In this document: positions 16,998 through 48,010 of the stretch, one piece after another
Layout of the letters: the number at the start of each line of letters is the position of its first letter
Numbering within the stretch: the first letter of the stretch is position 1
Source of the DNA: Patescibacteria group bacterium
Lineage (GTDB): Bacteria; Patescibacteriota; Minisyncoccia; 2-02-FULL-40-12
DNA: 64,000 bases
Assembly: GCA_038062015.1 (NCBI GenBank)
Contig: JBBTXZ010000002.1
Span: 1,266-65,265, forward strand
Reading direction: 5' to 3'
Made by a program: the position numbers and the translations under genes
Notes under the pieces: generated by a model
Databases searched by the model: none
Seen by the model: only the letters and a program-made list of their open reading frames with translations
Told to the model about the DNA's origin: nothing

Positions 16998-17891
16998 TTA
17001 TTGCAGCAACTTTCGCTTTAAAAATTTAAAAGTTTCGAGTTCTCTATAATCAACAAAAATTAAATGCCTTGGTTTAGTAGTCTTATGGGTACCCCGGCGA
17101 TGAAAGCCCATTGTATTTGCTATGACTAAGGTATTGGCTTTACCAGTAAACGGAATAACCTTCATCCCCTGTCTTTCAAGAGCTTCTCTCTCTACTTCCA
17201 TCGGCTCTTCTCCCTGGCGATTTCTAGACCACCGCCCAAAAGCTATACTCATTTTATATTCCATCCATAATCTTTTTAGGGTTAATTTTTGAGAGCCTCT
17301 GGCGTATTCAAAAGCGGCATTGCTATCGTCTATATCATTTAAATAATAAAGGCATTTAACCGTCGGATAGCTGACATCGAAATGAACCTGATCCTGAGTA
17401 TCAACGGCCCGCTTCCCGATATCTTCCTTATGGTAAAAAGTTTCTTCAAAGGAAACTTTTGGTTTAACTAAAATATCTTTGCCTAAAACAGCAGAAACAA
17501 TTTCATTGATGAAACTGTTGCTGGCTAAGTGTTTATCAAGAATAAAATTTGAATCCTTCTTATCATCCCTGACTAAAGCTGCTCGAGCCATATAGGGCGA
17601 CCGTTCGTTCATAATTTCTTTCTTTGCTTTATCACACTCATTTTTAATTTGTAAAAAAACCTCTTCCGGAAAAAAATTTGGAATAACGGCAATACCGTCA
17701 GCCATAATCTTTTCATAGATCGCTTTGCCTTGTTTGTCTTGAAGAAATTTTTTCCCCCGTAATCCATAAAAAGTATTAAAAACCAGAACTCTTAAGATAT
17801 GGTAGCCTAAAAGATTGGAAATGAATCCTCCCGCAAATCTGGGCGGGTAAGTATATAGTTTTTTAACCAGCGATTTAATAAATCCAATCAT
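16998..17891 (-). CDS. PhyH-like Fe(II)/2-oxoglutarate-dependent dioxygenase family protein
   Basis: H-x-D (HFDVSYPTV) and distal His (MGFHRRGTH) spacing typical of the PhyH fold; embedded in the sugar-modification operon. Confidence 0.4.
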   Translation of the reverse strand: MIGFIKSLVKKLYTYPPRFAGGFISNLLGYHILRVLVFNTFYGLRGKKFLQDKQGKAIYEKIMADGIAVIPNFFPEEVFLQIKNECDKAKKEIMNERSPYMARAALVRDDKKDSNFILDKHLASNSFINEIVSAVLGKDILVKPKVSFEETFYHKEDIGKRAVDTQDQVHFDVSYPTVKCLYYLNDIDDSNAAFEYARGSQKLTLKRLWMEYKMSIAFGRWSRNRQGEEPMEVEREALERQGMKVIPFTGKANTLVIANTMGFHRRGTHKTTKPRHLIFVDYRELETFKFLKRKLLQ

Positions 17892-17903
17892 TTTTTCAAT
17901 CTA

Positions 17904-18848
17904 TCACTGCTTGCTTTTATAAGCAATTAACAATGAAATCTCTTTGGGAAAATAATTTATTAAGCCGCTATAAACTTTATTTTCCTGAGATAGAATAAAC
18001 TTATGGCTGAATTTTGATTCTGGGAGTAATTTGTTAATTTTAGTTTGCACCCAAACCGGCATCACAGATAAAAATCTTTTGATAAACCGCTTATTTAATT
18101 TTGCCAAATAATAATTTTCGATCTTGGTAAAACCGGCCTTGTTAAAAAAATCATTCCAATCTTTCAAGCGATATTCTTTTTCTCCATTCATTCTTCTGGT
18201 AAATCTTTTATCTAAAGAAAAATCATATAACTTTTTGTCATTTTCGCTGTATTCCGTATCCAGTAATTCATTCAAGTCTTTTTCGGTAAAATAATCTGGA
18301 CGGGCTTTATCAAAACAAAAAATAAAACCGTCTTTTTTCAAGATTCTGAAGCATTCCTTAAGGGTTACAGCGAGATTATTTGAATGATGCAAAGAAAAGA
18401 AATCAAAAACAAAATCAACGGATTCATCAGGCAATTCCATATTGTCAAAACTGCCGATTACCCCTATGACTTTTTCTGATTTGCCGTTTAAAACATAGTC
18501 AGCAATTTTAGGCGCTAAGAGCTTTACTATCGGCTCACAAACTTCAACTGCATACATTTTTTCGATTGGTTTTCTTTTAGCTAAAACTGAACTAAAGGTC
18601 GCTGGACCAGCCCCAACTTCTAAACCAATCCCTTTTATTTTATTTTTTAAAAAATTATTTTCGACAAAATCAATTAGATTTTCCAAATCTTTTATTTCAA
18701 TATTCGGCGCTACTTTATCAAAAGTAATTTGTCGAATAATCGTAAGGGGTTCTTCATTTTTTAGGTCTAAAGCAAATTGAGTCCGATAATGCTCCTCGGT
18801 TTCCTTTTTTAATTCATCATTGATAGACCACTGAAGGATATTAAACAT
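17904..18848 (-). CDS. class I SAM-dependent methyltransferase
   Basis: motif I GLEVGAGPATF; motif post-I/II FDFFSLHH...LKKDGFIFCFD. Confidence 0.7.
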   Translation of the reverse strand: MFNILQWSINDELKKETEEHYRTQFALDLKNEEPLTIIRQITFDKVAPNIEIKDLENLIDFVENNFLKNKIKGIGLEVGAGPATFSSVLAKRKPIEKMYAVEVCEPIVKLLAPKIADYVLNGKSEKVIGVIGSFDNMELPDESVDFVFDFFSLHHSNNLAVTLKECFRILKKDGFIFCFDKARPDYFTEKDLNELLDTEYSENDKKLYDFSLDKRFTRRMNGEKEYRLKDWNDFFNKAGFTKIENYYLAKLNKRFIKRFLSVMPVWVQTKINKLLPESKFSHKFILSQENKVYSGLINYFPKEISLLIAYKSKQ

Positions 18849-19557
18849 AATTTTTGCTTATTATTATCGTCCCATGTGAATCAGGAATGGGAATTCCTGA
18901 AAGTTTATTTTCGGTTAGAAACTCATCAACTGCCTTCTTAACTCCTTCCCAGTGATCATTGTTGTAATCATGAACAAAAATATAGCCTCCCTTGCTTAAT
19001 TTTGGATAAAAACTCTTTAATCCTTCCAGTATCGGTTCATATAAATCAACATCAATTCTAACGAAAGAAAAATTGGTATCCGGGACTGAATCTTTATTGA
19101 ACTTTCCCACGTGCAATTGGCACACTTCTGGATATTTCATTTTTAAAAGAATGTCTTCTGGTGAAACTTCGGCAAATTTAAAGTTTCTCTCTATGTTCTG
19201 GGCTAAGTTTTTATTTACATCATGTTCAACGTGTTCTTTAATAAATCCTCCAAAAGTATCAAATAAATGAAGTTTTCTATCTGGGAATGCTTGATTTATT
19301 TTTTCAGCAAAATCGCCTCTATAGACTCCCAGTTCAGCCACATCTCCGTCAATTTTTTTTCTCTTTATTTCATCAACGCATAATTCAAAAGTGGCGAGAA
19401 GAATATAATCAGAATAAAAATTAGAGATTCTTGTTTGGAAATTAAGCGGCCGACTCATATTCACTAATGTCCTTGTGATGATAGCATTATTTTCCCAAAA
19501 CCACCTTACTATCAAACGATATAAAAATCTTTTAACTTTATCTTTTATTCTCTTCAT
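18841..19557 (-). CDS. TylF/MycF-family (macrocin-type) sugar O-methyltransferase
   Basis: DVAELGVYRGDFA...KLHLFDTFGGF and GGYIFVHDYNNDHWEGVKKAVDEF match PF05711 hallmarks. Confidence 0.65.
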   Translation of the reverse strand: MKRIKDKVKRFLYRLIVRWFWENNAIITRTLVNMSRPLNFQTRISNFYSDYILLATFELCVDEIKRKKIDGDVAELGVYRGDFAEKINQAFPDRKLHLFDTFGGFIKEHVEHDVNKNLAQNIERNFKFAEVSPEDILLKMKYPEVCQLHVGKFNKDSVPDTNFSFVRIDVDLYEPILEGLKSFYPKLSKGGYIFVHDYNNDHWEGVKKAVDEFLTENKLSGIPIPDSHGTIIISKNYV

Positions 19558-20468
19558 TCTTGATTTTTTAATCTTCCAAAATTTGAAAAATTTTTAATCT
19601 TATTCCAAATCAGTCGCAAAACGAATTTATATTTCTTCTTATAAATATATAGGAGCAAGACTTGCCAGCGGTTGTATTTATCAGGAAACTTTCGTAAGTA
19701 CTTGGGCAAAACTTGAATTTTTTCTTGGTCAATTTTAACCGAGGTCCATAAAAGCTTATTGCGACCCTCTTTAAGAACGAGTGTTCCATCATAAAGCTGA
19801 AAAATCTGCATTTGAGCCGACATATCTTTATGAATACAATATGGTTTATCGCAATCAATCTTGAAAAGTGGTAAAAATTCGTTTTTTACAAAAAAAGCAT
19901 TTAAGTAAGTAGTGGCAACTAATCTATAGCCTTTCTTTATAGCAAGATTGTAAAGTGCTAATAATGAATTACCGTGATTGATATCTTTATTCTTTTCTTG
20001 AATAAACTCAATATCAAGCGGAATTGAAGGATTAAATTCGATTACAACAACTTTCGGTTCATAAGTTTTAAGAGAATACCAAAGGTGGTAATCATTGCCA
20101 TCAACGTCAATAGAAAGTAAATCAAAATCTCTTAGTATATTTGTATTTTTTAAAATACTATCTAAACTATTTTCCCCTTCAAAATCAATGAATTTATTCA
20201 AACAGTCAACTTTATCTTTCTCTTTATAATTTTCCGACAATTTTTTAAATCTTTTTGGGTCGGCTTCAATTAAAACAGCACTCCATCCATAATTAACAAT
20301 TAAATTTCTGGTATTACTTAAATGTTCACCATCGTAAGCACCAAACTCCACGCACCATTTATCTCCTTTAATAATTTCAAATATTTTTTCTAAAATACCG
20401 TCCTCGCCGTATTGAGAGAAGATTTTTTTTGCGTGAGTGTTAAGCCAATCGTTTTGAATCGTATCCAT
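19554..20468 (-). CDS. FkbM-family methyltransferase-like protein
   Basis: N-terminal FSQYGEDGILEKIF and CVEFGAYDGEHLSN resemble FkbM-domain proteins found in glycan clusters. Confidence 0.4.
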   Translation of the reverse strand: MDTIQNDWLNTHAKKIFSQYGEDGILEKIFEIIKGDKWCVEFGAYDGEHLSNTRNLIVNYGWSAVLIEADPKRFKKLSENYKEKDKVDCLNKFIDFEGENSLDSILKNTNILRDFDLLSIDVDGNDYHLWYSLKTYEPKVVVIEFNPSIPLDIEFIQEKNKDINHGNSLLALYNLAIKKGYRLVATTYLNAFFVKNEFLPLFKIDCDKPYCIHKDMSAQMQIFQLYDGTLVLKEGRNKLLWTSVKIDQEKIQVLPKYLRKFPDKYNRWQVLLLYIYKKKYKFVLRLIWNKIKNFSNFGRLKNQE

Positions 20469-20598: not shown

Positions 20599-21792
20599 AT
20601 GATAGTGCGTGCGATGCTTTCAGCAAAAGAAATCAAACGCCTAATTCTAAAAAAGAAAGGGATTATTACGGCTTCAAGCGCCCGGGTTTTTCGCCAGTCG
20701 TATTTCGGCAATGACATCATCGCGCCAAATAGCGACCCGACTCCGGATAAAACCGACTGGCGCGGATACGCGCCGGTCGAACTCTGGATTATGTCTATAG
20801 TCGAAGCTGATAATCAAGTCCGGATGCCCGGCGAAGGAATAACAAAGGTATTAATCGACAGTGAGAAAATTCCCTTAACGCAAATCAAAGACCTTTTAGG
20901 CGAATTTGTTTTCGGTTCATATATAAACCATTGGCCGCTTACGAAAATTCTTGATATCGGCGGCCGAACTACAAGGACAAGTTTCGGCACAAAAGAAATT
21001 CCGCCGATCCCGGCACATGTTCACGGCGGAAAAATTTCAAAAGGAAAAGTCCTTAAGCCCGGAAAATCAGAAGCCTACTTTTTCCCGCCAACTAATTTAG
21101 AGCCTTATAACAAAAAAATTTCTGCCAAGACAAGAATCGGATTAAAACCAAAGGTAAAAAAAGAAGATATCCGAAAAAAACTTAAAGAATTCGGCAAGAA
21201 TGATTTAATGTACACATTGCTTAACGAATTTAAAATAAGACCGATGACCGGCTGGACCGTTCCCCAAGGAATCATCCACGCTCCGGGCCCCTACCTTACC
21301 TTTGAAATCCAGCTTCCTCAAGATGACTATAACTTGGCTTCGTGGAGACTAGGAGAACGTCTTGAAGAACAGGAAAGAAACCGCCGTTATGGGGAACTCG
21401 TCTTAAGGGGTCTAAAAAATGAAGGCGTCTTTGTGGAGTTGCTTCTTGACTGGCCCGCAAATACGGATAAAGATTTTGAGAAAAAATATTTCCGCGAACC
21501 GAAAGTAATCGAGTCGGGTTCATGGGGCAGAAGATTGCAGATATTCTTTGACCAGTTTTACGGCGAGGGATGGGAACTGTTTCCCGGACAAACCAAAACT
21601 TTACCGGTGAAAAACGTGCCCGTTGCCGGAGTTGTCTGGAGTGGCCAAGCGGCCATTAACGACAGCCGCCTCGAGCAAGGCGGCCAAAATGAATTTCTCG
21701 CCATTCCAGATACAAAAATCACCGTAACTAACCCGGGTATCCTACCTCTTTTCATTTACACCGTCGAACCGATTAAAAACCAGACTTCCTGA
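20599..21792 (+). CDS. cupin-fold protein resembling type I mannose-6-phosphate isomerase (tentative)
   Basis: 397 aa (E. coli ManA is 391 aa); YAPVELWIMS vs PMI ELWMGAHP; IPAHVHGG vs QVHP metal-ligand block; GIIHAPGPYLTFE vs ETPHAYLQG. Confidence 0.35.
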   Translation: MIVRAMLSAKEIKRLILKKKGIITASSARVFRQSYFGNDIIAPNSDPTPDKTDWRGYAPVELWIMSIVEADNQVRMPGEGITKVLIDSEKIPLTQIKDLLGEFVFGSYINHWPLTKILDIGGRTTRTSFGTKEIPPIPAHVHGGKISKGKVLKPGKSEAYFFPPTNLEPYNKKISAKTRIGLKPKVKKEDIRKKLKEFGKNDLMYTLLNEFKIRPMTGWTVPQGIIHAPGPYLTFEIQLPQDDYNLASWRLGERLEEQERNRRYGELVLRGLKNEGVFVELLLDWPANTDKDFEKKYFREPKVIESGSWGRRLQIFFDQFYGEGWELFPGQTKTLPVKNVPVAGVVWSGQAAINDSRLEQGGQNEFLAIPDTKITVTNPGILPLFIYTVEPIKNQTS

Positions 21793-21859
21793 TCCATCAT
21801 TCTGCTCTCTGTATTGAATTTGACTATAATTTAAATCTGATTTAAAATTTTATCTCGCA

Positions 21860-22621
21860 ATGAAATCAAAGAGATATAAATCAATACTCTTAGACGTAGA
21901 CGGAACCATTGTCCCAATTGGGCCCCATACCGTTCCCTCCAAAAAGGTAGTGCGTTATTTAAATAAGGCAAAAAGTAAAGTGATCGTTTCGCTTGTTTCG
22001 GGACGTCCCGTCAGCTGGCTCACTGATATTTTCCGACTGTTGAACATAACAAATCCCTGCATAGTCAACGGTGGCAGCCAGATTATTGATCCGAAAACTC
22101 AAAAGGTCCTCTGGGAAAAAAAGATTGACAAAAAATCTTTGGCTAAGATCCTAAAAATCATCCAAAACAACAAATTATCTTTTCTTGTGAATGACGGCGG
22201 GGTGGAATACAGAAATCCGAAAATTCTTAAATTCAGCCGGCCGATTGCAATTCAGGTATCATATTTAAACTCCGGAAAAATCTCCAAGTATTTAGAAAAA
22301 TTTAATAAAATTCCAAATATAACGGCACACTCTTTCCCCTCATGGGGAAAGAACAAAGTTGACATCTATATTACTCACGAAAAAGCCACCAAGCGCTCCG
22401 CGGTAGAAAAACTAGCGGCACTCTTAAAAATAGATATTTCCGACATGATTGCTGTTGGGGATGGGGAGAACGATGTCCCGCTCCTCATCGGGTGCGGCCT
22501 AAAAATTGCGATGGGAAATGCCGCAGAAAAACTTAAAAAAATAGCGGATTACGTCGCCCCATCTATCGATAATCACGGCGTGGCTCATATAATAGAAAAA
22601 TTCATCCTGCATCCGAACTAA
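21860..22621 (+). CDS. HAD-IIB (Cof-type) sugar-phosphate phosphatase
   Basis: LLDVDGTIV motif I; AVGDGENDVPLL motif IV; 253 aa. Confidence 0.7.
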   Translation: MKSKRYKSILLDVDGTIVPIGPHTVPSKKVVRYLNKAKSKVIVSLVSGRPVSWLTDIFRLLNITNPCIVNGGSQIIDPKTQKVLWEKKIDKKSLAKILKIIQNNKLSFLVNDGGVEYRNPKILKFSRPIAIQVSYLNSGKISKYLEKFNKIPNITAHSFPSWGKNKVDIYITHEKATKRSAVEKLAALLKIDISDMIAVGDGENDVPLLIGCGLKIAMGNAAEKLKKIADYVAPSIDNHGVAHIIEKFILHPN

Positions 22622-22647
22622 AACACGATATGCCTATCGCCTAATAG

Positions 22648-23235
22648 TTATTCAGATTCGTCAAACACAAAACGCACAGCTTCTCTAATCATATTTTCAA
22701 CACTGCTCTGCGGTATTCGTATAAGGCAGGACTCGGCAATGTTTTTATAATAATCATCGATGCGGCCGGCGCTTCTTAAAAAACTGGCCCGGATCGCCGG
22801 ATCCGACCAATTCTTCATGTCCGAATAGTCGTCAGGCAACATAAATTCCGAGCGGCGCTTGGCTTCTTCAAGATCGGGTGATTCAAGAACTATGAATTTA
22901 AGAGAAAACCCGAAACGCCGTGAAAGCTCTTTTATATACTCGTACGTTTCTACAAAATCGTGATCCATAACGACAACCGGAATTCCTCCGGAATCCAATA
23001 CTGCGGGCGCCATAACCTTGCACATGGCCCGGGCAACCCAGTGCCGATAACCAAGGCTCTCGGCTGAATCCGGCTTACCAGTATTCTCGCCGAAAATCTT
23101 CATTCTGATTTCATCCATATCAACCAGCGCCGGCTTTAGGCCTTTTAAACGAAGCGCCTCAATAATACCTTTTGCAACCGTTGTTTTGCCCGCGCGTTTT
23201 GCACCGTCTATATGAATCTGCAGTCGCTGTTTCAT
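22648..23235 (-). CDS. P-loop kinase (NK-superfamily small-molecule kinase, AAA_33/gluconokinase-like)
   Basis: IHIDGAKRAGKTTVAKGI Walker A; start moved to the internal Met (MKQRLQIHIDG) to avoid a 29-bp overlap with the upstream gene. Confidence 0.45.
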   Translation of the reverse strand: MKQRLQIHIDGAKRAGKTTVAKGIIEALRLKGLKPALVDMDEIRMKIFGENTGKPDSAESLGYRHWVARAMCKVMAPAVLDSGGIPVVVMDHDFVETYEYIKELSRRFGFSLKFIVLESPDLEEAKRRSEFMLPDDYSDMKNWSDPAIRASFLRSAGRIDDYYKNIAESCLIRIPQSSVENMIREAVRFVFDESE

Positions 23236-23236
23236 T

Positions 23237-23911
23237 TTATAGTTTATAGCCTGCTTCCTTGCCATCGTTATAAAACATTTTAACCGTCTCCAAAGATAAT
23301 TCCTTTAAATCCATGCCTTTAAATTTTTCGTATTTGGCTATCAGTTCAGAAGTACAGGTAATTATATCTGCTCCGGCTTCTTCGGCCTGATAAATATTTA
23401 AAACTTCGCGGGGCGATGCCCAAAGTATTTGAGCCAGCCCGCCGATTAAACTTTTAGATTTTGAAACATATTCACCGGGTTCTCTCCCTGTATCAGCAAT
23501 CCTTCCGGCAAAAATTGATATTATGCTTTTAGAGTTAATCACGGGTTTTAAATTTTCAACTTGGTCTAATTCCGTAACTGCCGTAATATTTAATTTTAAA
23601 TCAGAGAGTTTCTTTATTAATCCAACAGAGTACTCCCCTTTTGTGTTTGTAATCGGTACCTTCACATACACGTTTTCACCCCAGCCTGAAATTAATCTAG
23701 CTTGTCTTTCCATTTGATCAAAGTCATCAGCAAAAACCTCAAATGACACCGGCTTATCTCTAACTTCGGCAAGAACTTCTTTACAGAACTTTTCATAATC
23801 AACGACTCCGGCCTTCCTCATCAGAGTCGGATTTGTCGTAAAACCCTGTACTTTATCCTTATATTCCCTTATGGCATTTAAATCGCTTGAGTCCAGAAAT
23901 ATTTTAATCAT
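23237..23911 (-). CDS. transaldolase-family aldolase (TalC/fructose-6-phosphate aldolase-like, ~220-aa subfamily)
   Basis: MIKIFLDSSDLNAIREY...GFTTNPTLM matches the MKIFLDTA...GVTTNPTL signature; 224 aa. Confidence 0.75.
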   Translation of the reverse strand: MIKIFLDSSDLNAIREYKDKVQGFTTNPTLMRKAGVVDYEKFCKEVLAEVRDKPVSFEVFADDFDQMERQARLISGWGENVYVKVPITNTKGEYSVGLIKKLSDLKLNITAVTELDQVENLKPVINSKSIISIFAGRIADTGREPGEYVSKSKSLIGGLAQILWASPREVLNIYQAEEAGADIITCTSELIAKYEKFKGMDLKELSLETVKMFYNDGKEAGYKL

Positions 23912-23927
23912 ATTAGTAAATATTCTA

Positions 23928-24431
23928 TTAAACCTTCCGGGCGCCTAAAATCAAATCACACACTTCCCGCAAGGCATGATCGCCGCCTTGGCGCTTGGTT
24001 GCATAATCAGCAATTTTCAGACATTCGGAGGCGCCATCTTTAACCGTAAAAGCAACGCCGGCATATTTTAGACAATCCAAATCATTCAAGTCATCGCCCA
24101 TATAAGCGACTTCTTCTATGTTCATTCTTTCCCGTTTAATAAGGCTCTTAAATGAAGATAACTTATCATCCGGACTGTAAAGCATCTCTATTTTCAGCTT
24201 TTCACATCTTTTAGCGACGACGGGGCTTGATTCCATGGAAATAACCACAAATTTTATACCTTCTTTTTTGAGTAGATTCATGCCTAAACTGTCACGGCGG
24301 CTGCAAACAACCGTTTCGATTCCATCCTGATTCAAATAAACTTTAGCGTCGGTAAAAACCCCGTCAAAGTCCAAAGCAAATAGTTTTATTTTCTTAAGTT
24401 TACGATTTAAATCCGCACTTATTTTTTTCAT
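23928..24431 (-). CDS. KdsC-family HAD phosphatase (ulosonate-phosphate phosphatase; Kdo-8-P or KDN/Neu5Ac-9-P type)
   Basis: ALDFDGVFTDAKVY, VISMESSPVVAKR and EVAYMGDDLNDLDCL match the YrbI/KdsC subfamily. Confidence 0.75.
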   Translation of the reverse strand: MKKISADLNRKLKKIKLFALDFDGVFTDAKVYLNQDGIETVVCSRRDSLGMNLLKKEGIKFVVISMESSPVVAKRCEKLKIEMLYSPDDKLSSFKSLIKRERMNIEEVAYMGDDLNDLDCLKYAGVAFTVKDGASECLKIADYATKRQGGDHALREVCDLILGARKV

Positions 24432-24541
24432 AGGTTTATGCCTTTATTTTATCTTAAGTTGAATATCTTAATCATAGAAATCTAATTTTAACAAAATTCC
24501 CGGTTTTGTAAATATTCGCCAATTCTGATATTGTTTGTTAA

Positions 24542-24820
24542 ATGACCATTTTAAAAATATTTGACTATCTAACCATCGCCAGTTTAGCTTTTTTAAGTTA
24601 CGGGGTTTTATCGCAATGGCATTATATTTTTAAAAGCAAGTCGATTCGCGATATTGTTGTCCAAGATGTTTTAATCAGGTGGATTGCCACTTTAGTTTTG
24701 TTAATCAAAATAGTATTTGTTGGCGACCTTTATTTAATAATCGGACAGTCAATTTTTTCATTAGCTATTTCGACATACGCATTAACTTTATTATATATAA
24801 AGTCAAGGTATAAACAATGA
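24542..24820 (+). CDS. small membrane protein (3 TM), 4-bp overlap with the cytidylyltransferase gene
   Basis: 92 aa, hydrophobic segments; translationally coupled (ATGA) to the downstream gene. Confidence 0.35.
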   Translation: MTILKIFDYLTIASLAFLSYGVLSQWHYIFKSKSIRDIVVQDVLIRWIATLVLLIKIVFVGDLYLIIGQSIFSLAISTYALTLLYIKSRYKQ

Positions 24821-25557
24821 AAATTGTAGCTGTAATTCCGGCTCGGGGCGGGTCAAAAAGAATTCCCCGGAAAAATATAAAAAACTTCTGCGGCAAGCCG
24901 TTAATTGCCTGGACGATTTTAGGGGCGCTTAAAAGTAAATACCTGGATCGGGTGATTGTTTCAACCGACGATGAAGAAATTGCCAAAATCGCCAAAAAAT
25001 ACGGCGCCGAAGCGCCGTTTTTGCGGCCGGCAGAACTGGCAATCCCGACTATCGGCCTTGAACCAGTGCTTAAACACTCTTATGAATGGCTTTTAGAAAA
25101 CGAGAATTATAAAGCTGACGCGCTGGCGCTTTTGCTGCCGACAGCCCCCTTAAGACAAACACGTCATATTGACGATGCAATTGAAATTTTTAAAAAGAAA
25201 AAATCTGATTCAGTGGTGGCAATCAATGAAACGCCGGCCAGCCACTCGCCTTATTGGACTTTGGTTATAAATAAAAAAGGCAAAGTAACTTTATGGAACG
25301 GCTCTGGTTTAGAAAACAGAATAACCCGCAGTCAGGATTTTCCCCAAAAGTGCTATTCCTGGAACGATTTGGCATATGTTTTTAAGCCAAAAAACTTGTT
25401 TAAAAAAGTGCCTAATCTTTATGGCGACAATGTGGAACCATATATAATCCCTGATCCTTCCAGATACGAAGCTGATATAAATACTCCGGACGACTGGGAA
25501 GCCGCCGAAATAAAATTCAAAATACTCCAGAGAAAAAACTTTCTTAAAAACCGCTAA
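24817..25557 (+). CDS. CMP-ulosonate (acylneuraminate/KDN) cytidylyltransferase, NeuA family
   Basis: MKIVAVIPARGGSKRIPRKNIKNFCGKPLIAWTI...RVIVSTDDEEIAKIAKKYGAEAPFLRP is the NeuA/CMP-NeuAc synthetase N-terminal signature. Confidence 0.8.
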   Translation: MKIVAVIPARGGSKRIPRKNIKNFCGKPLIAWTILGALKSKYLDRVIVSTDDEEIAKIAKKYGAEAPFLRPAELAIPTIGLEPVLKHSYEWLLENENYKADALALLLPTAPLRQTRHIDDAIEIFKKKKSDSVVAINETPASHSPYWTLVINKKGKVTLWNGSGLENRITRSQDFPQKCYSWNDLAYVFKPKNLFKKVPNLYGDNVEPYIIPDPSRYEADINTPDDWEAAEIKFKILQRKNFLKNR

Positions 25558-26338
25558 CTGACCAGCCGCCGTCAACTGTAATATCCGACCCCGTCACATA
25601 ACTTGAAGCGCCTGATGCCAAAAAAACTGCGGCGCCGACAAGCTCTTTTGGTTCGCCGTATCTTTTAATCATGGCCCGTTCAAGCCTCGCAGCGCGAGCT
25701 TCAGGATCAGCATAACTTTTTGCAGTCATGGCTGTATGCATATAGCCGGGGCTAATGCTGTTTACCCTGATTCCATACTTTGCCCAATCTTTAGCCAAAG
25801 CCCTCGTCAAAGAAGCTAAGCCGCCTTTAGCCGCAACGTAAGCCGGATTATTAGAATATCCAAATTTACTGCTTATGCTTGCTATATTGATAATGCTGCC
25901 CTCTTTCTTTGATTTTATCATTTCTCTGGCAACCAGCTGGCTTAGTTGAAAATGAGCAGTTAAGTTGACGGCTATTGTTTTTTCCCATTGATCTATCGGA
26001 TATTCTTCAGATGGGTACCCCACTGTTATGCCGGCGTTATTGACTAAAGTATCAATTGTTCGGCCGGATTTTTTAATTTTTGAAATAATCCTTTCTAAAT
26101 CTTCTTTTTTGCTGATATCGGCATTTATAAAAACTGCTTGGCTTTGCTTTTTAAAAAGTTCTGGTTCTTCCGGATTGATAATATCCACAAAGTAAACAAA
26201 AGCTCCGGCGGCAAGAAAGCCGTTAGCAATTGCTTGACCATTTCCTCTTGCCGCGCCGGTAACTATCGCCGTTTTACCTTCCAAAGAAAAAATGCCGTCT
26301 AAGAATTGGCTGTTTTTTTGCTTACTTTTTTTATTCAT
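25544..26338 (-). CDS. SDR-family oxidoreductase
   Basis: TGAARGNGQAIA Rossmann motif, NNAG, and a YxxxK catalytic dyad region. Confidence 0.8.
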   Translation of the reverse strand: MNKKSKQKNSQFLDGIFSLEGKTAIVTGAARGNGQAIANGFLAAGAFVYFVDIINPEEPELFKKQSQAVFINADISKKEDLERIISKIKKSGRTIDTLVNNAGITVGYPSEEYPIDQWEKTIAVNLTAHFQLSQLVAREMIKSKKEGSIINIASISSKFGYSNNPAYVAAKGGLASLTRALAKDWAKYGIRVNSISPGYMHTAMTAKSYADPEARAARLERAMIKRYGEPKELVGAAVFLASGASSYVTGSDITVDGGWSVSGF

Positions 26339-26542
26339 AACTTAAGAGTCTACCTCTTTTTGTTCTATTTATCAAATCTCCGGAAAAATACTCCAACTGC
26401 TTCCATGCGGATCCGAGGCAGAAGATTGTAGATGGTGTACATTCTCATATTTTAACAAAGGGGTGGTTCCAAGGTATTGAACCATAACATAATTTAGACA
26501 TTTATTATATTTATTTTATAAAAAAACAATAAAATCACAAAA

Positions 26543-27250
26543 CTACTTATCAACACTGATTTCAACAAAAATCCCTTGGCCAAACAAAGACGGCCAGAGA
26601 CGGTTCAAAATCGGCATACCTTCATAAAGATGAATTTTGAAATTCTTATAACTCTGGTTTTTTAGCCACCAAGCCATATCGCGAACTGTCCAAAACCTTA
26701 AATGTTCTGATGGCCGCACCCGCCATTGAAGCGGAAATCGGCCAAAAAGTAACCTAAACCGATGCACAAAAAATCCGGTATTAGGTACGGAAAAAAACAC
26801 TCCTTTTTTCGAATTTTTAAAAGCCCACTTTAAAATTTCTTCCGAATTAGACAAATGCTCAATTACCTCAAAAAGAAAAACATAATCCGCTTGGGGAAGT
26901 CTGTTTAACTCTTCAACTTTTGAAATATCTAAATTAAGTATCTCAATTCCCTTCTCTTTAGCTAAAGCCAAAACCTCTTTTGAAAAATCCACACCAATCA
27001 TCCTGCCTAGCTTTTTTCTTTGATTAATATAAAAAAGAATTCCGCCGTCGCCGCAGCCGACATCAATCACTGAACTTCCCGATTCAATCGCCTTAACTAC
27101 AAAATCAGCTCTCTTTTTTTGAAAGCTATTTAGCGGTTTCTGGGATGCTGACTTTCTTTCTTTCCAATAAAGAGTATAGTCCGGGTCGTTGTCTTTCAAC
27201 GCCGGGTAAATAAATAATTCCTTAAGCCACTTTTTCAAAGTATAGAGCAT
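26543..27250 (-). CDS. class I SAM-dependent methyltransferase
   Basis: VIDVGCGDGGILFYIN motif I. Confidence 0.7.
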   Translation of the reverse strand: MLYTLKKWLKELFIYPALKDNDPDYTLYWKERKSASQKPLNSFQKKRADFVVKAIESGSSVIDVGCGDGGILFYINQRKKLGRMIGVDFSKEVLALAKEKGIEILNLDISKVEELNRLPQADYVFLFEVIEHLSNSEEILKWAFKNSKKGVFFSVPNTGFFVHRFRLLFGRFPLQWRVRPSEHLRFWTVRDMAWWLKNQSYKNFKIHLYEGMPILNRLWPSLFGQGIFVEISVDK

Positions 27251-28272
27251 TAAAAATCCTGGGTTTTTCGAAGCATCTTGATAATCGGAATTTCGGCTTC
27301 CAAAACGGTTTTTACGCCGGTGCCGGTTGCCGCGCTCATCGCTCTCACGGCTTTGACAAGTTCGACAAATTCCTGGGGCTCCAGACTGGCGGCTTGATCG
27401 CCGCCGAACATTTTTTTATCCAAAGTGATATGACGCTCAATCAGTCGGGCGCCGATGGTTGCCGCGGCAACAGAAGCAACAATCCCCTTCTCATGGCCGC
27501 TGTATCCTACTTGTACCGCTGGAAAAAATTTCCTGAATTTAATAATTGTTCTCAAATTCAGGTCCTTTTCTTCGGCCGGATAAGTAGAGACGGTATGAAG
27601 CAGGATTAAATTTCTGGTTCCCAAAATACTAAGCGCCTTTCTGACTTGTTCCATCGTACTCATACCGGTTGAAAGAATCACCGGCCTGCCGGTTTGCTTA
27701 ACTTTTCTTAAAAGCCCGGCATTAGTCAACATCGCCGAAGCGATTTTATGGCAGGGCGGATCAAGTTTTTCGAGAAAATCAAGGCTTTCTTCATCCCATG
27801 GAGAAGCAAAACACAAAAGCCCTTTCTGATTCGCGTAAGAAAACAATTCTCTGTATTCGGCTTCATTAAATTCACGGGCGTATTTTAGATCTCCGTCGGT
27901 AGAATCTTGAAAATCGGATTTGATTAATCGTTCAACCGATTCTTTCGGAAGAGCCTCTCGTTTAATCGCATTTTCCAAAAGATCTCTGGGCACGGCCCGA
28001 GGTTTAGCCAATTCTTCAGCCGAATAAACCATCGGAATAGTTCTTTTTTGAAATTTGACGGCTTGGGCGCCGGCCTCAGACGCTATATCAATCAGTTTTT
28101 TTGCAATCTCCATACCGCCGTTATGGTTAACCCCGATTTCAGCTACAAAAAAAACCGGCTGTGTTCTAGAAACCGGAATTTTACCTAAATAAACATCAGG
28201 CGGTTCTGATGGAATTTTCTTAACAATCCTTACAAATTTAGTGACAGCTCGATTGACCAAATTCGTAAACAT
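27250..28272 (-). CDS. NeuB-family PEP-dependent nonulosonic acid (phosphate) synthase
   Basis: PVFFVAEIGVNHNGGMEIAKKLIDIASEAGAQAVKFQKRT matches the NeuB/NANS N-terminal signature; 340 aa. Confidence 0.8.
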   Translation of the reverse strand: MFTNLVNRAVTKFVRIVKKIPSEPPDVYLGKIPVSRTQPVFFVAEIGVNHNGGMEIAKKLIDIASEAGAQAVKFQKRTIPMVYSAEELAKPRAVPRDLLENAIKREALPKESVERLIKSDFQDSTDGDLKYAREFNEAEYRELFSYANQKGLLCFASPWDEESLDFLEKLDPPCHKIASAMLTNAGLLRKVKQTGRPVILSTGMSTMEQVRKALSILGTRNLILLHTVSTYPAEEKDLNLRTIIKFRKFFPAVQVGYSGHEKGIVASVAAATIGARLIERHITLDKKMFGGDQAASLEPQEFVELVKAVRAMSAATGTGVKTVLEAEIPIIKMLRKTQDF

Positions 28273-28298: not shown

Positions 28299-29675
28299 TT
28301 AAGCTGATGTCAATTGAGCCGATATCAAGTTAGCGATCCGTTCGCCCGCTTTCCCATCAAGCGAAAAAAGATGGTTTCTAACAATATTATCTCTCCCATC
28401 TTGATCAATGGCAGGATCAGTCAAATAATTATTGATCCATAAAATCAAGTCTTTTTTATTTTCAACCACTCTCGTCCCGCCCTGAATTATCAAGCTTCTT
28501 ATATTATCTTCATTATGATATCTTTTTACACTAATTTCGTAATCCTTTTTCTCCCAGCCGTCAAAACTGACAATAATCTGGGGCTTGTTAAAAACTGCGG
28601 CATCCAAGCCAAGAGAAGTAGCGATATAAATTATTATGTCGGAGTAAAAAACAGAATTACGGAGGTGGCTTTCGTCATCCGGATTAATCTCTGTTACTCT
28701 CACATTGGTACCGAATTTTGTGCCCGGGTTTTCGATTATAAAATTTTCATCGGCCTCAAACTTTGAAAAATCAGCCGGGTGGGACGGATGGTTTCTGACT
28801 AAAAACTGAATATCATCTGGCAAAGCGCCATCTTTAATTGCATCTTTAAGAATTCGGCAGATTTGCCAATCTGTGTCTGAAAGAATTTTTCCGGCCGGGG
28901 CAAAAAGGATTAGCCTCTTTTTCGGGTTAACCCCGATTTTAGAAAAAAATTCTTCCCGGCTTAAAGTCGGGCCTTTAATAAAACTATCGAACTGAGGCAG
29001 ACCGACGACAGAAATAATTTTTTCTGAAACACTGTGAAACCTCACTGCCTCTTCTTTGGCCAACTTACTGTTAACAATAGCTTTATTAGGAATGATTCTT
29101 AAAACTCCTTTGGTTGTGGTATTATCCCAGGAACGAACCATCCCTATGGTTTTTATGCCTGCTTTTTTTGCCTGTCTCAAAAAGAGCGCATCGTATTCGG
29201 AAAAAATATCAGTTGAAAAAAATAAATCAGGCTTATATTTCAAAAAATATCCTTTAAAAATTTCTTTTGGAGAAAATATAAAATCTAAAAATCTATACAC
29301 TCCTCTTAGGGCGCTGACGTGGCTTAAAATCGAAGCAGAAGTATTAACCAAAAAGTAGTTCAAATAGCCAATAATATTTCGGTGTTCATATAATCTTGTT
29401 TTTCTTTGATCCTGGATATAAAAACTATTTTGAAGCAAAAAGGCCAGCCGATACCAAAATTTATTGTATGATGAACGAATTATTTTATCTAAATCTATAC
29501 CTTCAATTTCAATATTGGCCCCGCTGTAATATTTATTAATAAAATCTTTTTTATACTCATGAGTAAAAATAACAATTTTAATATCTTTTTGATTTTTTAA
29601 AATCCTAAACGCATCCGTATTTAAGATATTCCGGGAAACAAATGGATGGAAACAGCTTAGAAAAATCGTTTTCAT
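28299..29675 (-). CDS. hypothetical glycan-biosynthesis protein (possibly a TagF/KpsS-like transferase); family unresolved
   Basis: 458 aa, soluble, first gene of the long overlapping minus-strand operon directly downstream of the NeuB-like gene; no unambiguous motif. Confidence 0.25.
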   Translation of the reverse strand: MKTIFLSCFHPFVSRNILNTDAFRILKNQKDIKIVIFTHEYKKDFINKYYSGANIEIEGIDLDKIIRSSYNKFWYRLAFLLQNSFYIQDQRKTRLYEHRNIIGYLNYFLVNTSASILSHVSALRGVYRFLDFIFSPKEIFKGYFLKYKPDLFFSTDIFSEYDALFLRQAKKAGIKTIGMVRSWDNTTTKGVLRIIPNKAIVNSKLAKEEAVRFHSVSEKIISVVGLPQFDSFIKGPTLSREEFFSKIGVNPKKRLILFAPAGKILSDTDWQICRILKDAIKDGALPDDIQFLVRNHPSHPADFSKFEADENFIIENPGTKFGTNVRVTEINPDDESHLRNSVFYSDIIIYIATSLGLDAAVFNKPQIIVSFDGWEKKDYEISVKRYHNEDNIRSLIIQGGTRVVENKKDLILWINNYLTDPAIDQDGRDNIVRNHLFSLDGKAGERIANLISAQLTSA

Positions 29676-34221: not shown

Positions 34222-36012
34222 TTATGATTTATAAATTAAGAAACTTTCGATAACTAAAACATCCATTTCGCTTTTCCTGAATGTATTAATGGCTTCGGCT
34301 GGCGTATTAACTATCGGCTCTCCTTTAAGATTAAATGAGGTATTTAAAACCATTGGCACGCCGGTTCTTTGACGAAATCGGTCAATCAGATTCCAATAGC
34401 GGGGCGAAATCTCTTTAAAAACAAGCTGGGGCCGAGCCGTGCCGTCAACATGAGTAATAGCCGGAATAACGCTTTGTTTTTCTTTTTTTACCGGCACTAC
34501 ATAAAGCATGAATCTCGCCGGATAATGATTTTGGGCGTTGGGAATTTCAAAAAAATCTTCGGCGTATTCAGCTAAAACTGACGGCGCAAAAGGTCTATAT
34601 GGTTCCCGAAACTTAATTTTAGTGTTAACTATATCTTTCATTTCGGCTCGCCTCGGATCAGCGATAATGGAACGGTTGCCCAAAGCTCTCGGCCCCCACT
34701 CAAAACGGCCCTGAAACCAACCGATAACTTTTCCTTTTTCCAAGTTTTCTGAAACAGAATTTATCAATTTTTCTTCATCATCAAAGTATTCAAAACTATC
34801 AATATTTTTATTCCTTAAAGTTTCTTTAATTTCGTCATTTGAATAACTTTTTCCGTAATAAGCATGTTCAAACACAAACTTTCTGTCATTCTTCAAGCCC
34901 ATATGCCAAATTGCTAAAGCCGCCCCCAAAGCTCCGCCGCCGTCGCCGGCCGAAGGTTGGATGAAAATTTCTCTAAAAGGAGTCCCCTGAATAATTTTCC
35001 AATTTGCCACCGAATTTAAAGCCACGCCGCCTGCCAGGCATAATTTATCGCAACCGGTAATCTTATAAGCTTCTTTTGCAAGATTAATCACGCCTTCCTC
35101 TAAAACACTCTGAATTGAAGCGGCAATATCAGCATAATATTCCTGTTCTTTTGCCAACTGTTCAAATTTTTCATCTTCCGGCTTTAACCCGAAATAAGAA
35201 GGCCAACCAGTGGATCTGGTGAAAAATTTTGATTTGGGATCTCGGGGCCGGCCGAACAGCTCAATAAACTTTTTTGAAAATGTTTTTTTGTCTGATCGGT
35301 GAAATAAAAAATAATTAAGATTTAAAACAAATGATCCATCACCAAAAAAAGTAATCAGTTTTTTAATTTTATCATGGTAAATCGGTTTTCCATAAGGAGC
35401 CATGCCCATAACCTTATACTCGCCTTCGTTAACTTCAAAACCCAAAAAAGCCGTAAAAGCCGAATATAAAAGGCCAAGCGAATGCGGGAAATAGACTTTT
35501 TTTAAAACCTTAATCTTGTTACCTTCGCCTATGCCAATAGTTGTCGTAGCCCACTCACCCACTCCGTCAATCGTTAAAATAGCGGCCTTTTCATAAGGCG
35601 AACATAAAAAGGCGGAAGCGGCGTGGGAAAGGTGGTGCTCTGAAAATAAAATCTTATCCGGACTGATTCCTATTTCTTTTGAAATTATTTCCCTTATCCA
35701 AATTTTTGAAATGAATAAGTTTTTCATCCCGTGAATAAAAGCCAGAGGCGAATAAGGAAAGGTTGAAAGAAAAGTTTTGAAAATTCTTTCAAGTTTAAGG
35801 AACGGTTTCTCATAAAAAACCACATGATCTAACTCTTCAAGTTTTATACTCCCTTCTTTTAAAACAAATTCTATGGCGTTTTTAGGAAAATCAGAATCGT
35901 GTTTTTTTCTGGAAAAACGCTCTTCTTCGGCCATCGCTCGAGGAACACCGTTAATAAGCAAGGCTGCTGCTGAATCGTGATAATAAAAAGAGAGGCCCAG
36001 TATCTTACTCAT
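34222..36012 (-). CDS. carbamoyltransferase (NodU/CmcH/TobZ family)
   Basis: ILGLSFYYHDSAAALLINGV...AMAEEERFSRKKHD N-domain (ASKHA-like) and a C-terminal YrdC-like region; 596 aa. Confidence 0.85.
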   Translation of the reverse strand: MSKILGLSFYYHDSAAALLINGVPRAMAEEERFSRKKHDSDFPKNAIEFVLKEGSIKLEELDHVVFYEKPFLKLERIFKTFLSTFPYSPLAFIHGMKNLFISKIWIREIISKEIGISPDKILFSEHHLSHAASAFLCSPYEKAAILTIDGVGEWATTTIGIGEGNKIKVLKKVYFPHSLGLLYSAFTAFLGFEVNEGEYKVMGMAPYGKPIYHDKIKKLITFFGDGSFVLNLNYFLFHRSDKKTFSKKFIELFGRPRDPKSKFFTRSTGWPSYFGLKPEDEKFEQLAKEQEYYADIAASIQSVLEEGVINLAKEAYKITGCDKLCLAGGVALNSVANWKIIQGTPFREIFIQPSAGDGGGALGAALAIWHMGLKNDRKFVFEHAYYGKSYSNDEIKETLRNKNIDSFEYFDDEEKLINSVSENLEKGKVIGWFQGRFEWGPRALGNRSIIADPRRAEMKDIVNTKIKFREPYRPFAPSVLAEYAEDFFEIPNAQNHYPARFMLYVVPVKKEKQSVIPAITHVDGTARPQLVFKEISPRYWNLIDRFRQRTGVPMVLNTSFNLKGEPIVNTPAEAINTFRKSEMDVLVIESFLIYKS

Positions 36013-39880: not shown

Positions 39881-39900
39881 AGTGCGGCAAAGATTATAAA

Positions 39901-40980: not shown

Positions 40981-40993
40981 AGAATTTATATTA

Positions 40994-42175: not shown

Positions 42176-42196
42176 AGTAAGAATAATATCTTCGTT

Positions 42197-47934: not shown

Positions 47935-47944
47935 GTATTTTCAA

Positions 47945-47989
47945 ACCAAAAAGACGCAGTGAGTATTCCCCTAAAACTCACTGCGTCTT
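47945..47989 (-). terminator. rho-independent terminator for the GC-rich gene 48011..48772 (13-bp perfect stem)
   Basis: agacgcagtgagt / actcactgcgtct stem with attcccctaaa loop; T-run (ctttttgg) on the minus strand. Confidence 0.5.
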
Positions 47990-48010
47990 CGCTTGCGAAA
48001 GAACTAAGGG

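Follow-up and report, generated by a model that had tools for sequence, protein, structure and literature searches.

A candidate heptose-fed CMP-ulosonate pathway in a Patescibacteria genome

A block of genes in a Patescibacteria genome may combine two coupled modules, in which heptose-7-P feeds the synthesis of a ten-carbon CMP-ulosonate; this is the reading that we tentatively favour. In the feeder module, a transaldolase would supply sedoheptulose-7-P, and a bicupin with the fold of phosphomannose isomerase (PMI) would convert it to D-glycero-D-manno-heptose-7-P, the reaction that GmhA catalyses with another fold. A SAF-less NeuB-family synthase would then join PEP to an aldose phosphate, most likely heptose-7-P, after which a KdsC-family phosphatase would remove the terminal phosphate, an SDR (by oxidation, reduction or epimerisation) and a methyltransferase would tailor the acid, a PseF/NeuA-like enzyme would form the CMP-sugar, and a TagF-like protein would transfer it. 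More speculatively, a P-loop kinase and a Cof-type phosphatase might divert some heptose-7-P to heptose-1-P for an NDP-heptose. Family membership and co-occurrence show the logic of the ulosonate module, and we infer its substrate. With heptose-7-P as that substrate, the product would be a ten-carbon homologue of Kdn and not Kdn itself, although Kdn is a possible product.

The gene block and its conservation

The block was found in a groundwater Patescibacteria genome. It sits within a surface-glycan locus of roughly 50 kb in the window, by which we mean the whole 64,000-nucleotide stretch of DNA analysed. The preliminary description had read it as a Bacteroides-type Kdn route from Man-6-P and PEP; its parts list and its phosphate, phosphatase and CMP logic have held, and its Kdn assignment is not supported. 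Every gene that it named is real, each being found in place in the ORF list.

The genes for the KdsC-subfamily (HAD C0) putative ulosonate-phosphate phosphatase (23928–24431), the transaldolase (23237–23911) and the kinase-like protein (22648–23265) lie co-oriented on the reverse strand, separated by 16 nt and about 1 nt, the KdsC-like gene being the first in this putative operon. On the forward strand, the Cof-type gene (21860–22621) starts 67 nt downstream of the PMI-fold isomerase gene (20599–21792). A class I SAM methyltransferase gene (26543–27250, reverse strand; PF13489, 59 bits) overlaps the synthase stop codon by 1 nt at its start. The start of the cytidylyltransferase gene is overlapped by 4 nt by a 92-aa hydrophobic ORF (24542–24820, forward strand; ORF list), which had no Pfam match at E ≤ 5 and no homologue in any related locus compared; it may encode a small membrane or transporter protein, and its membership of the pathway is uncertain. 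A TagF-like protein (28299–29675, reverse strand; PF04464, 36.7 bits) is a candidate CMP-ulosonate transferase, and Pfam matches identify a PhyH-like dioxygenase and Methyltransf_11, TylF and FkbM methyltransferases as tailoring genes (16998–20468, reverse strand).

An independent Patescibacteria contig (L085/L086) carries the whole block in synteny, with protein identities of 51–76% and the shared order TagF-like, NeuB, SDR, cytidylyltransferase, KdsC, transaldolase, kinase, Cof, cupin, TylF, methyltransferase, PhyH, and hence the grouping exceeds chance. Three of the four tailoring genes (PhyH, Methyltransf_11 and TylF) are still linked to the block there, adjoining the cupin gene. In L085 a DegT aminotransferase gene lies upstream of the synthase gene, and no methyltransferase gene follows the latter.

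The ulosonate genes

The synthase (27250–28272, reverse strand), a predicted PEP:aldose-phosphate condensing enzyme, scores 241.9 bits on PF03102 (NeuB) and has no SAF domain. It falls below the cut-offs of both the NeuB_NnaB model (250.8 bits, cut-off 399.65) and the PseI model (210.6 bits, cut-off 340.25). Its best PDB match is PseI 8h2c (138.6 bits), and the biochemically characterised Kdn-9-P synthetase of Prymnesium, at 28.6% identity (114 bits), is no nearer to it than the PseI or NeuB matches. The phosphatase exceeds the cut-off of the KdsC-subfamily model TIGR01670 (121.4 bits, cut-off 106.95) and lies below those of KdsC PRK09484 (130.7 bits, cut-off 208) and the Kdn-9-P phosphatase model NF058599 (101 bits, cut-off 180), scoring higher on KdsC; in the PDB it matches KdsC 4um5 with 115 bits and BT1713 with 83.5 bits. 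The candidate CMP-ulosonate synthetase (24817–25557, forward strand), a cytidylyltransferase of the NeuA/PseF/KdsB family, scores 83.9 bits on PF02348 (CTP_transf_3), and its best NCBIfam match is PseF (184 bits, below the cut-off of 205.7). The SDR oxidoreductase (25544–26338, reverse strand; PF13561, 204 bits) is related to gluconate 5-dehydrogenase (224 bits) and KduD (223 bits), both below the NCBIfam cut-offs.

The synthase family is found across many phyla. Of the 103 loci for which neighbours were counted, 86 have a KdsC-like gene no more than 10 kb from the synthase gene, 58 an accompanying SDR gene and 55 a cytidylyltransferase gene; NeuA-KdsC fusions are also present. A TagF-like homologue is found in 23 of these loci, and the gene adjoins the synthase gene in the window, L085 and L087. 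These associations support the earlier view that the NeuB-type synthase takes a sugar phosphate as substrate, with a KdsC-type phosphatase and a cytidylyltransferase acting after it.

A GmhA-like gene occurs in 30 of the 103 loci, on the same strand as the synthase gene in 26 of the 30 and within 215 nt in 10, while PfkB, HldE, HldC, GT9 and ARMT1 occur in none. The GmhA-like proteins score 188–230 bits on the gmhA and phosphoheptose-isomerase models, all just under the GmhA equivalog cut-offs, so their specificity could differ. In a neighbour-joining (NJ) ordering, the synthases of the window and of L085/L086, which have the cupin, are sister to those of L087, L090, L093 and L096, where a GmhA-like gene stands beside the synthase gene and neither a heptose kinase nor a nucleotidyltransferase gene is near it; one synthase clade is thus associated with two folds that are unrelated but proposed to have the same activity. 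The GmhA-containing operons also carry AP_endonuc_2, GFO and SDR genes, whose products could alter the sugar ahead of the condensation step. In about 70% of the loci of the synthase family, no isomerase gene is near the synthase gene.

The isomerase and the other feeder genes

The 397-aa bicupin, described earlier as a ManA-like cupin, had no Pfam or NCBIfam match. Its AF2 model (pLDDT 96.1) confirms the PMI fold, as the top 17 Foldseek matches in the PDB are all type I phosphomannose isomerases, with 1zx5 first (E 2.7e-16). Within the family, H142...K156xE158...H227 is invariant and H140 nearly so, and in a partial alignment to 1zx5 this HxH...KxE...H motif parallels the QxH...KxE...H metal site of PMI.

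The company kept by the family is that of heptose genes. One member (P0228) is fused to a full HldE-like kinase and nucleotidyltransferase, another (P0229) to an ARMT1-like phosphatase and HldC, and others to ARMT1 alone or HldC alone. In L171, L174 and L175 the family occurs in operons with transaldolase, PfkB (best match rfaE_dom_I), Cof, HldC and GT9 genes, and in L088 and L089 with HldE and ARMT1. The module in L173 is orthologous to that in L171 (identities of 52% for PfkB, 50% for HldC and 48% for GT9) and has a GmhA-like SIS_2 gene in the cupin's place; its HldC passes the rfaE_dom_II cut-off of 181.5 with a score of 210.7. The window's transaldolase, Cof and cupin are 50–53% identical to the products of the heptose-type module in L171. 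Together with the GmhA-like genes beside synthase relatives, these fusions, clusters and the swap point to sedoheptulose-7-P and heptose-7-P instead of fructose-6-P and Man-6-P. The general idea of a PMI-like isomerase and a transaldolase-family enzyme feeding the pathway from central sugar phosphates is upheld, and Man-6-P as what they feed is not. We propose that the 397-aa protein isomerises sedoheptulose-7-P to D-glycero-D-manno-heptose-7-P, as an analogue of GmhA that is not homologous to it.

The proposed supplier of sedoheptulose-7-P is the transaldolase, an enzyme of the short TalC/Staphylococcus type (PF00923 TAL_FSA, 111.8 bits; TIGR02134, 262 bits against a cut-off of 282). Aligned to the Thermoplasma transaldolase, it conserves the Asp, the Glu and the Schiff-base Lys, and has Phe (in SIFAGR) at the position that switches between TAL and FSA; it is 50% identical to the L171 enzyme. 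The kinase-like protein, described earlier as a P-loop small-molecule kinase, has an NMP-kinase fold and agrees with that description: its sequence matches (APS-kinase, AAA_33, 6PF2K) are all weak, and its AF2 model (pLDDT 78) has its best Foldseek matches in APS kinase and the PFK-2 kinase domain. The gene probably begins at 23235, the start used in the 195-aa NCBI version. One of the five homologues found, that of L173, lies within a GmhA-like/HAD/TAL/PfkB/HldC/GT9 cluster. The Cof-type HAD-IIB sugar phosphatase (PF08282, 142 bits; TIGR00099, 135.4 bits, just under the cut-off of 137) is 51% identical to the product of the L171 Cof/S6PP gene and is a possible GmhB analogue.

Alternative readings and related pathways

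It is unlikely that the two modules are independent, with the four feeder genes making heptose-1-P for an NDP-heptose activated by a distant nucleotidyltransferase, and the NeuB/KdsC/CMP genes making Kdn or a Kdo-like acid from housekeeping Man-6-P or Ara-5-P. An ulosonate route needs neither the kinase nor the Cof phosphatase, and orthologues of the cupin, transaldolase and Cof stand in PfkB (HldA-like)/HldC/GT9 modules of other Patescibacteria without a NeuB-like gene, so the feeder block may serve NDP-heptose only. Its order of ketose-7-P isomerase, kinase and phosphatase indeed resembles the NDP-D-glycero-D-manno-heptose pathway (GmhA, HldE or HldA/HldC, GmhB); a GalU-like NTP-transferase gene is available (42724–43566, with genes for a dehydratase-like protein and a C-methyltransferase next to it), the KdsC-like protein scores highest on true KdsC, and most synthase-family loci are without a nearby isomerase. 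However, the window contains no PfkB, HldC or GT9, having the P-loop kinase-like protein instead; it also differs from that pathway in its isomerase, a PMI-fold bicupin and not a SIS-fold GmhA, and in its phosphatase, which is of the Cof type (ARMT1-like in other lineages) and not GmhB. Moreover, the GmhA-like genes of 30 synthase loci, the window's sister clade included, run in the same direction as the synthase gene, often next to it, in the absence of a heptose kinase or nucleotidyltransferase, KdsC shares its putative operon with the transaldolase and kinase, and the CMP-transferase is the only nucleotidyltransferase in the 21 kb read of the 26.5-kb L085 contig.

We regard as improbable a Kdn pathway in which the cupin works as a genuine phosphomannose isomerase, the transaldolase yields fructose-6-P, and a Kdn-9-P synthase leads to CMP-Kdn, which is then reduced, oxidised or methylated. 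The PMI fold agrees with it, and the locus also needs Man-6-P for GDP-mannose-derived sugars (Gmd, 46900–47934). The triad of synthase, C0-type HAD (KdsC-like) phosphatase and CMP-transferase matches that of Bacteroides thetaiotaomicron (BT1713–BT1715) and Prymnesium parvum (PMC6200933), whose synthases use a sugar 6-phosphate and PEP; neither pathway has NeuC, the Prymnesium synthetase (312 aa) likewise lacks SAF, and KdsC-like partners in related loci match the Kdn-9-P phosphatase model best (113–127 bits). Yet the synthase is distant from the Kdn-9-P synthase that has been characterised, and the phosphatase shares 34% identity with BT1713 and falls under the NF058599 cut-off. The known Kdn pathways do without a dedicated isomerase, transaldolase, kinase and second phosphatase, all of which the window has; if fructose-6-P were all that the pathway required as precursor, a transaldolase of its own would be difficult to account for, and all informative contexts and fusions of the cupin family involve HldE, HldC, ARMT1 or GT9, besides the GmhA-like swap.

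The Streptomyces members of the synthase family are relevant here. These SAF-less synthases, 44–47% identical to that of the window, are encoded just downstream of a NeuA-KdsC-type ORF, as in the SCO4880 (NeuA)/SCO4881 (NeuB) arrangement of the teichulosonic acid (Kdn polymer) cluster SCO4873–SCO4882 (PMC3479208), and they probably belong to that cluster (PMC3479208, PMC13011467) and make Kdn, which can be methylated there (PMC11481543). Their loci, unlike the window, have no isomerase, transaldolase or kinase nearby, so the synthase family includes probable Man-6-P users.

A pathway to an amino nonulosonic acid (Pse, Leg or Neu5Ac type) is highly improbable: PseI and PseF are the best PDB and NCBIfam matches of the synthase and cytidylyltransferase and a DegT aminotransferase neighbours the L085 synthase, but both enzymes miss the equivalog cut-offs, the synthase has no SAF domain, its close linkage to a KdsC-type phosphatase implies that its substrate carries a phosphate, and a scan of the window ORFs down to 110 aa, which skipped a few that were short or overlapping, gave no Epimerase_2 match, in line with the earlier claim of no NeuC route, no complete Pse or Leg upstream set, and no NeuC/LegG, PseG, PseH or PseB-type dehydratase.

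For the heptose-fed reading, a parallel exists in lincomycin octose assembly, where a dedicated transaldolase (LmbR) makes a ketose phosphate with a longer carbon chain, which is then isomerised (LmbN), phosphorylated at C-1 (LmbP), dephosphorylated (LmbK) and activated by a nucleotidyltransferase (LmbO); the isomerase and kinase families differ from those of the window, and the product is a GDP-octose, not a CMP-ulosonate. No structural description of a 3-deoxy-dec-2-ulosonic acid of this type was found in the literature searched. CMP-activated C10 ulosonic acids have been detected by mass spectrometry in Magnetospirillum, with no genes assigned (bioRxiv 10.64898/2026.04.20.719630). If the Patescibacteria pathway is heptose-fed, it may yield a novel Kdn relative with more carbon atoms.

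Setting of the ulosonate genes

Nearly all of the window between 13660 and 63578, about 50 kb, is given over to glycan biosynthesis and forms one locus. Its parts include at least 12 glycosyltransferases, at least nine methyltransferases, a priming sugar transferase, a flippase, two Wzy_C/TPR proteins, a carbamoyltransferase (34222-36012) and a PhyH-like dioxygenase, and the Patescibacteria organism that carries this ~50 kb has a small genome. A forward-strand sub-cluster (46900-51910) holds a bona fide GDP-mannose 4,6-dehydratase (448 bits), a DegT aminotransferase, an epimerase/reductase and a GT11-like fucosyltransferase, and therefore the same locus also needs mannose phosphates. Another, on the reverse strand (38924-43566), encodes a GalU-like nucleotidyltransferase, a 2H/cyclic-phosphodiesterase-like protein, a sugar C-methyltransferase with a zinc-binding domain, a 4,6-dehydratase-like epimerase and a GFO oxidoreductase; its product is probably a C-methylated deoxy sugar, and its GalU-like gene is the sole candidate NDP-heptose nucleotidyltransferase in the window. 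Housekeeping genes (SecA, SecF, Mur ligase) occupy the first 13 kb. At the window edge is a TrwB/TraG-like type IV secretion coupling-protein ATPase (335-1849, reverse strand), with an unannotated 427-aa ORF and a sigma-70 region 4 protein as neighbours. No tRNA was found in a scan across the window.

The preliminary description picked out the block 20599-28272, and its ORFs are all in place. Its central triad is sound: the synthase (27250-28272, reverse strand) passes the NeuB TIM-barrel model PF03102 (241.9 bits against a cut-off of 22.1), its sole Pfam match; the HAD phosphatase (23928-24431, reverse strand) passes the KdsC/YrbI subfamily model TIGR01670 (121.4 bits against 106.95); and the cytidylyltransferase (24817-25557, forward strand) belongs to PF02348. 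Pfam and NCBIfam profile searches found no SAF (antifreeze-like) domain in the synthase. Profile matches also uphold the assignments of the Cof-type HAD phosphatase (21860-22621, forward strand), the TAL_FSA protein (23237-23911, reverse strand), the SDR (25544-26338, reverse strand) and the SAM methyltransferase. A hydrophobic 92-aa ORF (24542-24820, forward strand) overlaps the start of the cytidylyltransferase gene by 4 nt; it has no Pfam match at E ≤ 5 and no homologue among the related loci, and by eye it looks like a SemiSWEET/PQ-loop transporter with three helices.

The TAL_FSA protein scores 111.8 bits on PF00923 and 262.3 bits on TIGR02134, below the cut-off of 281.95. Alignment to the Thermoplasma transaldolase shows that the catalytic Asp, the Glu and the Schiff-base Lys (in VKVP) are kept, and the motif SIFAGR carries a Phe, not a Tyr, at what we take to be the position separating transaldolases from fructose-6-P aldolases. 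Sequence matches of the adjacent P-loop protein (22648-23265, reverse strand) are faint; its AlphaFold model (five sequences, pLDDT 78) agrees with the kinase assignment made earlier, having a P-loop NMP-kinase fold, for which APS kinase and the kinase domain of 6-phosphofructo-2-kinase are the nearest matches. Five homologues were found among 5.8 billion proteins. In the NCBI version the protein has 195 aa, its start lying ten codons further on, and the apparent 29-nt overlap with the transaldolase gene disappears. The phosphatase, transaldolase and kinase genes make up one tight, co-oriented unit.

One NCBI entry, 'MAG: N-acetylneuraminate synthase family protein [Patescibacteria group bacterium]', has exactly the sequence of the synthase, which is carried by metagenome contigs from Hainich groundwater. 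A second Patescibacteria organism (loci L085/L086) keeps the gene order, namely TagF-like, DegT, NeuB, SDR, CMP-transferase, KdsC, transaldolase, kinase, Cof, cupin, TylF, methyltransferase and PhyH, at 51-76% protein identity, so the block is not a chance neighbourhood.

A predicted PMI-fold family in heptose-type operons

The 397-aa product of 20599-21792 (forward strand) had tentatively been called a type I phosphomannose isomerase (PMI). This holds for the fold but not for profile membership. The AlphaFold model (41 homologues, pLDDT 96.1) has a predicted PMI bicupin fold, and its 17 best Foldseek matches in the PDB are all type I PMIs (against 1zx5, TM-score 0.57 normalised to the query and 0.74 to the target, E 2.7e-16), while no Pfam or NCBIfam model, PMI models included, matches at E ≤ 5. 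The phmmer match to 1zx5 is weak (E 0.38), with H227 aligned to a His of 1zx5 in a partial alignment. The family motif, H140xH142...K156xE158...H227, in which H140 occurs in at least 90% of sequences and the other positions are invariant, parallels at the level of sequence the QxH...KxE...H metal and catalytic site of PMIs.

With 93 representatives at E ≤ 1e-30 in a set of 1.84 billion sequences, this is a small family; homologues are also seen in the sponge Halichondria panicea and in marine protist transcriptomes. Several members are fusions (P0227-P0231, P0153, P0168, P0208, P0211). P0228 (896 aa) joins the cupin to a complete HldE-like kinase plus nucleotidyltransferase, P0229 (859 aa) to an ARMT1-like phosphatase and an HldC-like domain, P0231 and P0168 to ARMT1 alone, and several others to HldC alone. 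In an archaeal operon the cupin gene is followed by genes for HldE-like, ARMT1-like phosphatase, HldC-like and GT9 heptosyltransferase-like proteins. Three Patescibacteria modules (L171, L174, L175) place a cupin, 53-62% identical to that of the window, with a transaldolase, a PfkB kinase whose best match is a heptose-7-P kinase domain, a Cof/S6PP phosphatase, an HldC-like gene (absent from L174) and a GT9 gene. The window transaldolase, Cof phosphatase and cupin are 50-53% identical to their L171 counterparts. No GmhA was found in the cupin-family operons examined (the archaeon, L171, L174 and L175). Near the PMI-fold gene in two Patescibacteria loci (L170:701-3132 and L174:10306-12787) is a KdsD-like SIS+CBS protein of ~320 aa that pairs with an unannotated ~495-aa protein.

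A further locus, L173, has PfkB, HldC and GT9 genes orthologous to those of L171 (48-52% identical), and its HldC passes the heptose-1-P adenylyltransferase cut-off (210.7 against 181.5). The place of the cupin is taken there by a GmhA-like SIS_2 gene. Because of the fusions, the operons without GmhA, the orthology and this swap, we conclude that the cupin family is most likely a PMI-fold analogue of GmhA and that the window transaldolase would be there to supply sedoheptulose-7-P. The cupin is a bicupin by predicted structure and the SIS fold of GmhA is absent, so that its likeness to GmhA, as read from fusions, operons and the swap, would be one of analogy only. These modules could also run the four steps on mannose; the transaldolase, the GT9 genes and the GmhA swap favour heptose.

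Putative isomerase genes near the synthase

The window synthase is one of a large family of proteins, 280-340 aa long and SAF-less, that spans many phyla. We fetched 163 loci and analysed the 103 with a length of at least 9 kb, counting neighbours up to 10 kb from the synthase. A KdsC-like phosphatase is present in 86 of the 103, an SDR in 58, a homologous cytidylyltransferase in 55 and a TagF-like protein in 23, and NeuA-KdsC fusions occur in some. The co-occurrence of phosphatase, cytidylyltransferase and SDR, with these fusions, strongly supports a family route that begins with condensation of PEP and a phosphorylated aldose, continues with loss of the terminal phosphate and ends with CMP activation of the free acid. 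Near some members are ALS-like TPP enzymes, CDP-glucose-type dehydratases and DegT proteins; these were set aside, looking like separate deoxy-sugar pathways and showing no correlation with the GmhA-like gene.

That gene is found in 30 of the 103 loci; in 26 of these it shares the strand of the synthase, and in ten it lies within 215 nt of it. Scores of the proteins against the gmhA and phosphoheptose-isomerase models are 188-230 bits, a little short of the cut-offs, and their specificity may be shifted. Loci with the gene are enriched for an AP_endonuc_2 TIM-barrel protein, an IolG-like GFO oxidoreductase and an SDR, a trio that may remodel the sugar before condensation. The operon (L017:7903-14359, L014, L121, L139, L030 and others) runs TagF-like glycosyltransferase, CMP-transferase, NeuA-KdsC fusion, NeuB-like synthase, AP_endonuc_2, IolG-like oxidoreductase, SDR and GmhA-like gene. 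It is unannotated, conserved in Chloroflexi, Acidobacteria, Myxococcota and other phyla, and we found no description of it in the literature. PtmF of legionaminic-acid clusters was dropped as an SIS-isomerase analogy, its published listing being a 326-aa oxidoreductase.

By neighbour-joining, the cupin-carrying loci (the window and L085/L086) group as sister to L087, L090, L093 and L096, where a GmhA-like gene adjoins the synthase. From these sister groups we conclude that the isomerase adjoining the synthase has, within one clade, been swapped for one of an unrelated fold, as expected if the ulosonate pathway includes an isomerase step.

The product and its significance

D-glycero-D-manno-heptose-7-P is the one-carbon homologue of Man-6-P and, on the simplest reading, would be the aldose phosphate used by the synthase. 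The transaldolase would provide sedoheptulose-7-P, the PMI-fold isomerase would act as a GmhA analogue, and the result would be a ten-carbon homologue of Kdn that the KduD-like SDR and the methyltransferase then modify; for L085, the DegT aminotransferase next to the synthase suggests amination instead. We favour such a heptose-fed CMP-ulosonate tentatively, at somewhat under an even chance. The wider proposal is rather doubtful. It holds that a SAF-less NeuB-like clade with a sedoheptulose-7-P isomerase (GmhA-like in Chloroflexi, Acidobacteria, Myxococcota and several Patescibacteria, PMI-fold here) condenses PEP with D-glycero-D-manno-heptose-7-P to give a CMP-activated ten-carbon 3-deoxy-2-ulosonic acid, and that in Patescibacteria, archaea and some eukaryotes the PMI-fold family is an unrecognised, non-homologous GmhA replacement for making NDP-heptose. 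Literature searches for deculosonic or ten-carbon sugars, and for GmhA with NeuB and KdsC, returned nothing relevant. Such acids are not implausible, since a 2026 preprint on Magnetospirillum reports mass-spectrometric evidence, without genes, for CMP-activated C10 ulosonic acids (bioRxiv 10.64898/2026.04.20.719630), although that compound is of the diamino type and may be unrelated to the window product.

That the block combines two independent modules is unlikely, though better placed than the readings that follow. About 70% of the synthase-family loci have no nearby isomerase, and the kinase and Cof phosphatase are superfluous for a ulosonate route, two points that weigh on the heptose-fed reading too; on either reading the P-loop protein, a homologue of which lies alongside the PfkB kinase in L173, could make heptose-1,7-bisphosphate for an NDP-heptose branch via the distant GalU-like enzyme. 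Against a separate heptose module, the window is without the HldA/HldE-type PfkB kinase, the HldC-type nucleotidyltransferase and the GT9 of NDP-heptose biosynthesis: tblastn of the L171, L173 and L088 proteins against it gave nothing significant. Nor did any of the 103 synthase loci contain a PfkB/HldE kinase, HldC, GT9 or ARMT1, or show a GHMP-kinase cluster.

The Bacteroides-type Kdn-9-P route from Man-6-P and PEP, proposed in the preliminary description, is improbable as the source of the product. A Streptomyces clade of the family, in which the synthase gene is preceded by a NeuA-KdsC-type ORF and there is no isomerase (gene content is rough there, simple ORF calling being unreliable in these high-GC loci), is probably the teichulosonic (Kdn) cluster SCO4879-4881 (PMC3479208, PMC13011467), and the family therefore likely includes Man-6-P users. 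The Kdn references compared, Prymnesium Kdn-9-P synthetase and the phosphatase BT1713 (sequences from the PMC6200933 supplement), lend the window proteins little likeness. The former, biochemically characterised, 312 aa long and likewise SAF-less, shares 28.6% identity with the window synthase (114 bits); PseI and NeuB structures are at least as close. The phosphatase, 34% identical to BT1713, falls short of the Kdn-9-P phosphatase model NF058599 (101.2 bits against 180), and it scores higher against genuine KdsC; it passes the KdsC subfamily model but falls below the KdsC equivalog PRK09484 (130.7 bits against 208). The observation of the gene set is confirmed and its interpretation partly supported, but not the specific Kdn product.

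A Pse-, Leg- or Neu5Ac-type pathway is scarcely credible, even though the cytidylyltransferase is nearest PseF, yet under the PseF cut-off, and a DegT aminotransferase lies next to the synthase in L085: the synthase places outside both NeuB/NnaB (TIGR03569, 250.8 bits against 399.65, the match stopping at model position 279 of 329) and PseI (TIGR03586, 210.6 against 340.25), no PseB/C/H/G genes were found in the window, and its scanned ORFs of at least 110 aa include no NeuC, as previously described, and no complete Pse or Leg upstream set.

Kdo, Kdn and the sialic, pseudaminic and legionaminic acids are ulosonic acids and key surface sugars, and those known have, to our knowledge, all eight or nine carbons. 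The region is a variation on the known scheme of synthase, phosphatase and CMP-transferase, and two testable findings emerge: a PMI-fold family most likely replacing GmhA, and a widespread operon of GmhA-like and NeuB-like genes that may make a higher-carbon ulosonic acid. Should the synthase use a heptose phosphate, this would give a gene-level handle on a ten-carbon ulosonic acid and would explain a conserved, unannotated operon in many uncultured phyla. Within the NDP-heptose-type operons of Patescibacteria and archaea themselves, the PMI-fold family would fill the missing isomerase step. Heptose metabolites are sensed by the innate immune receptor ALPK1, and the family matters for predicting which organisms make them.
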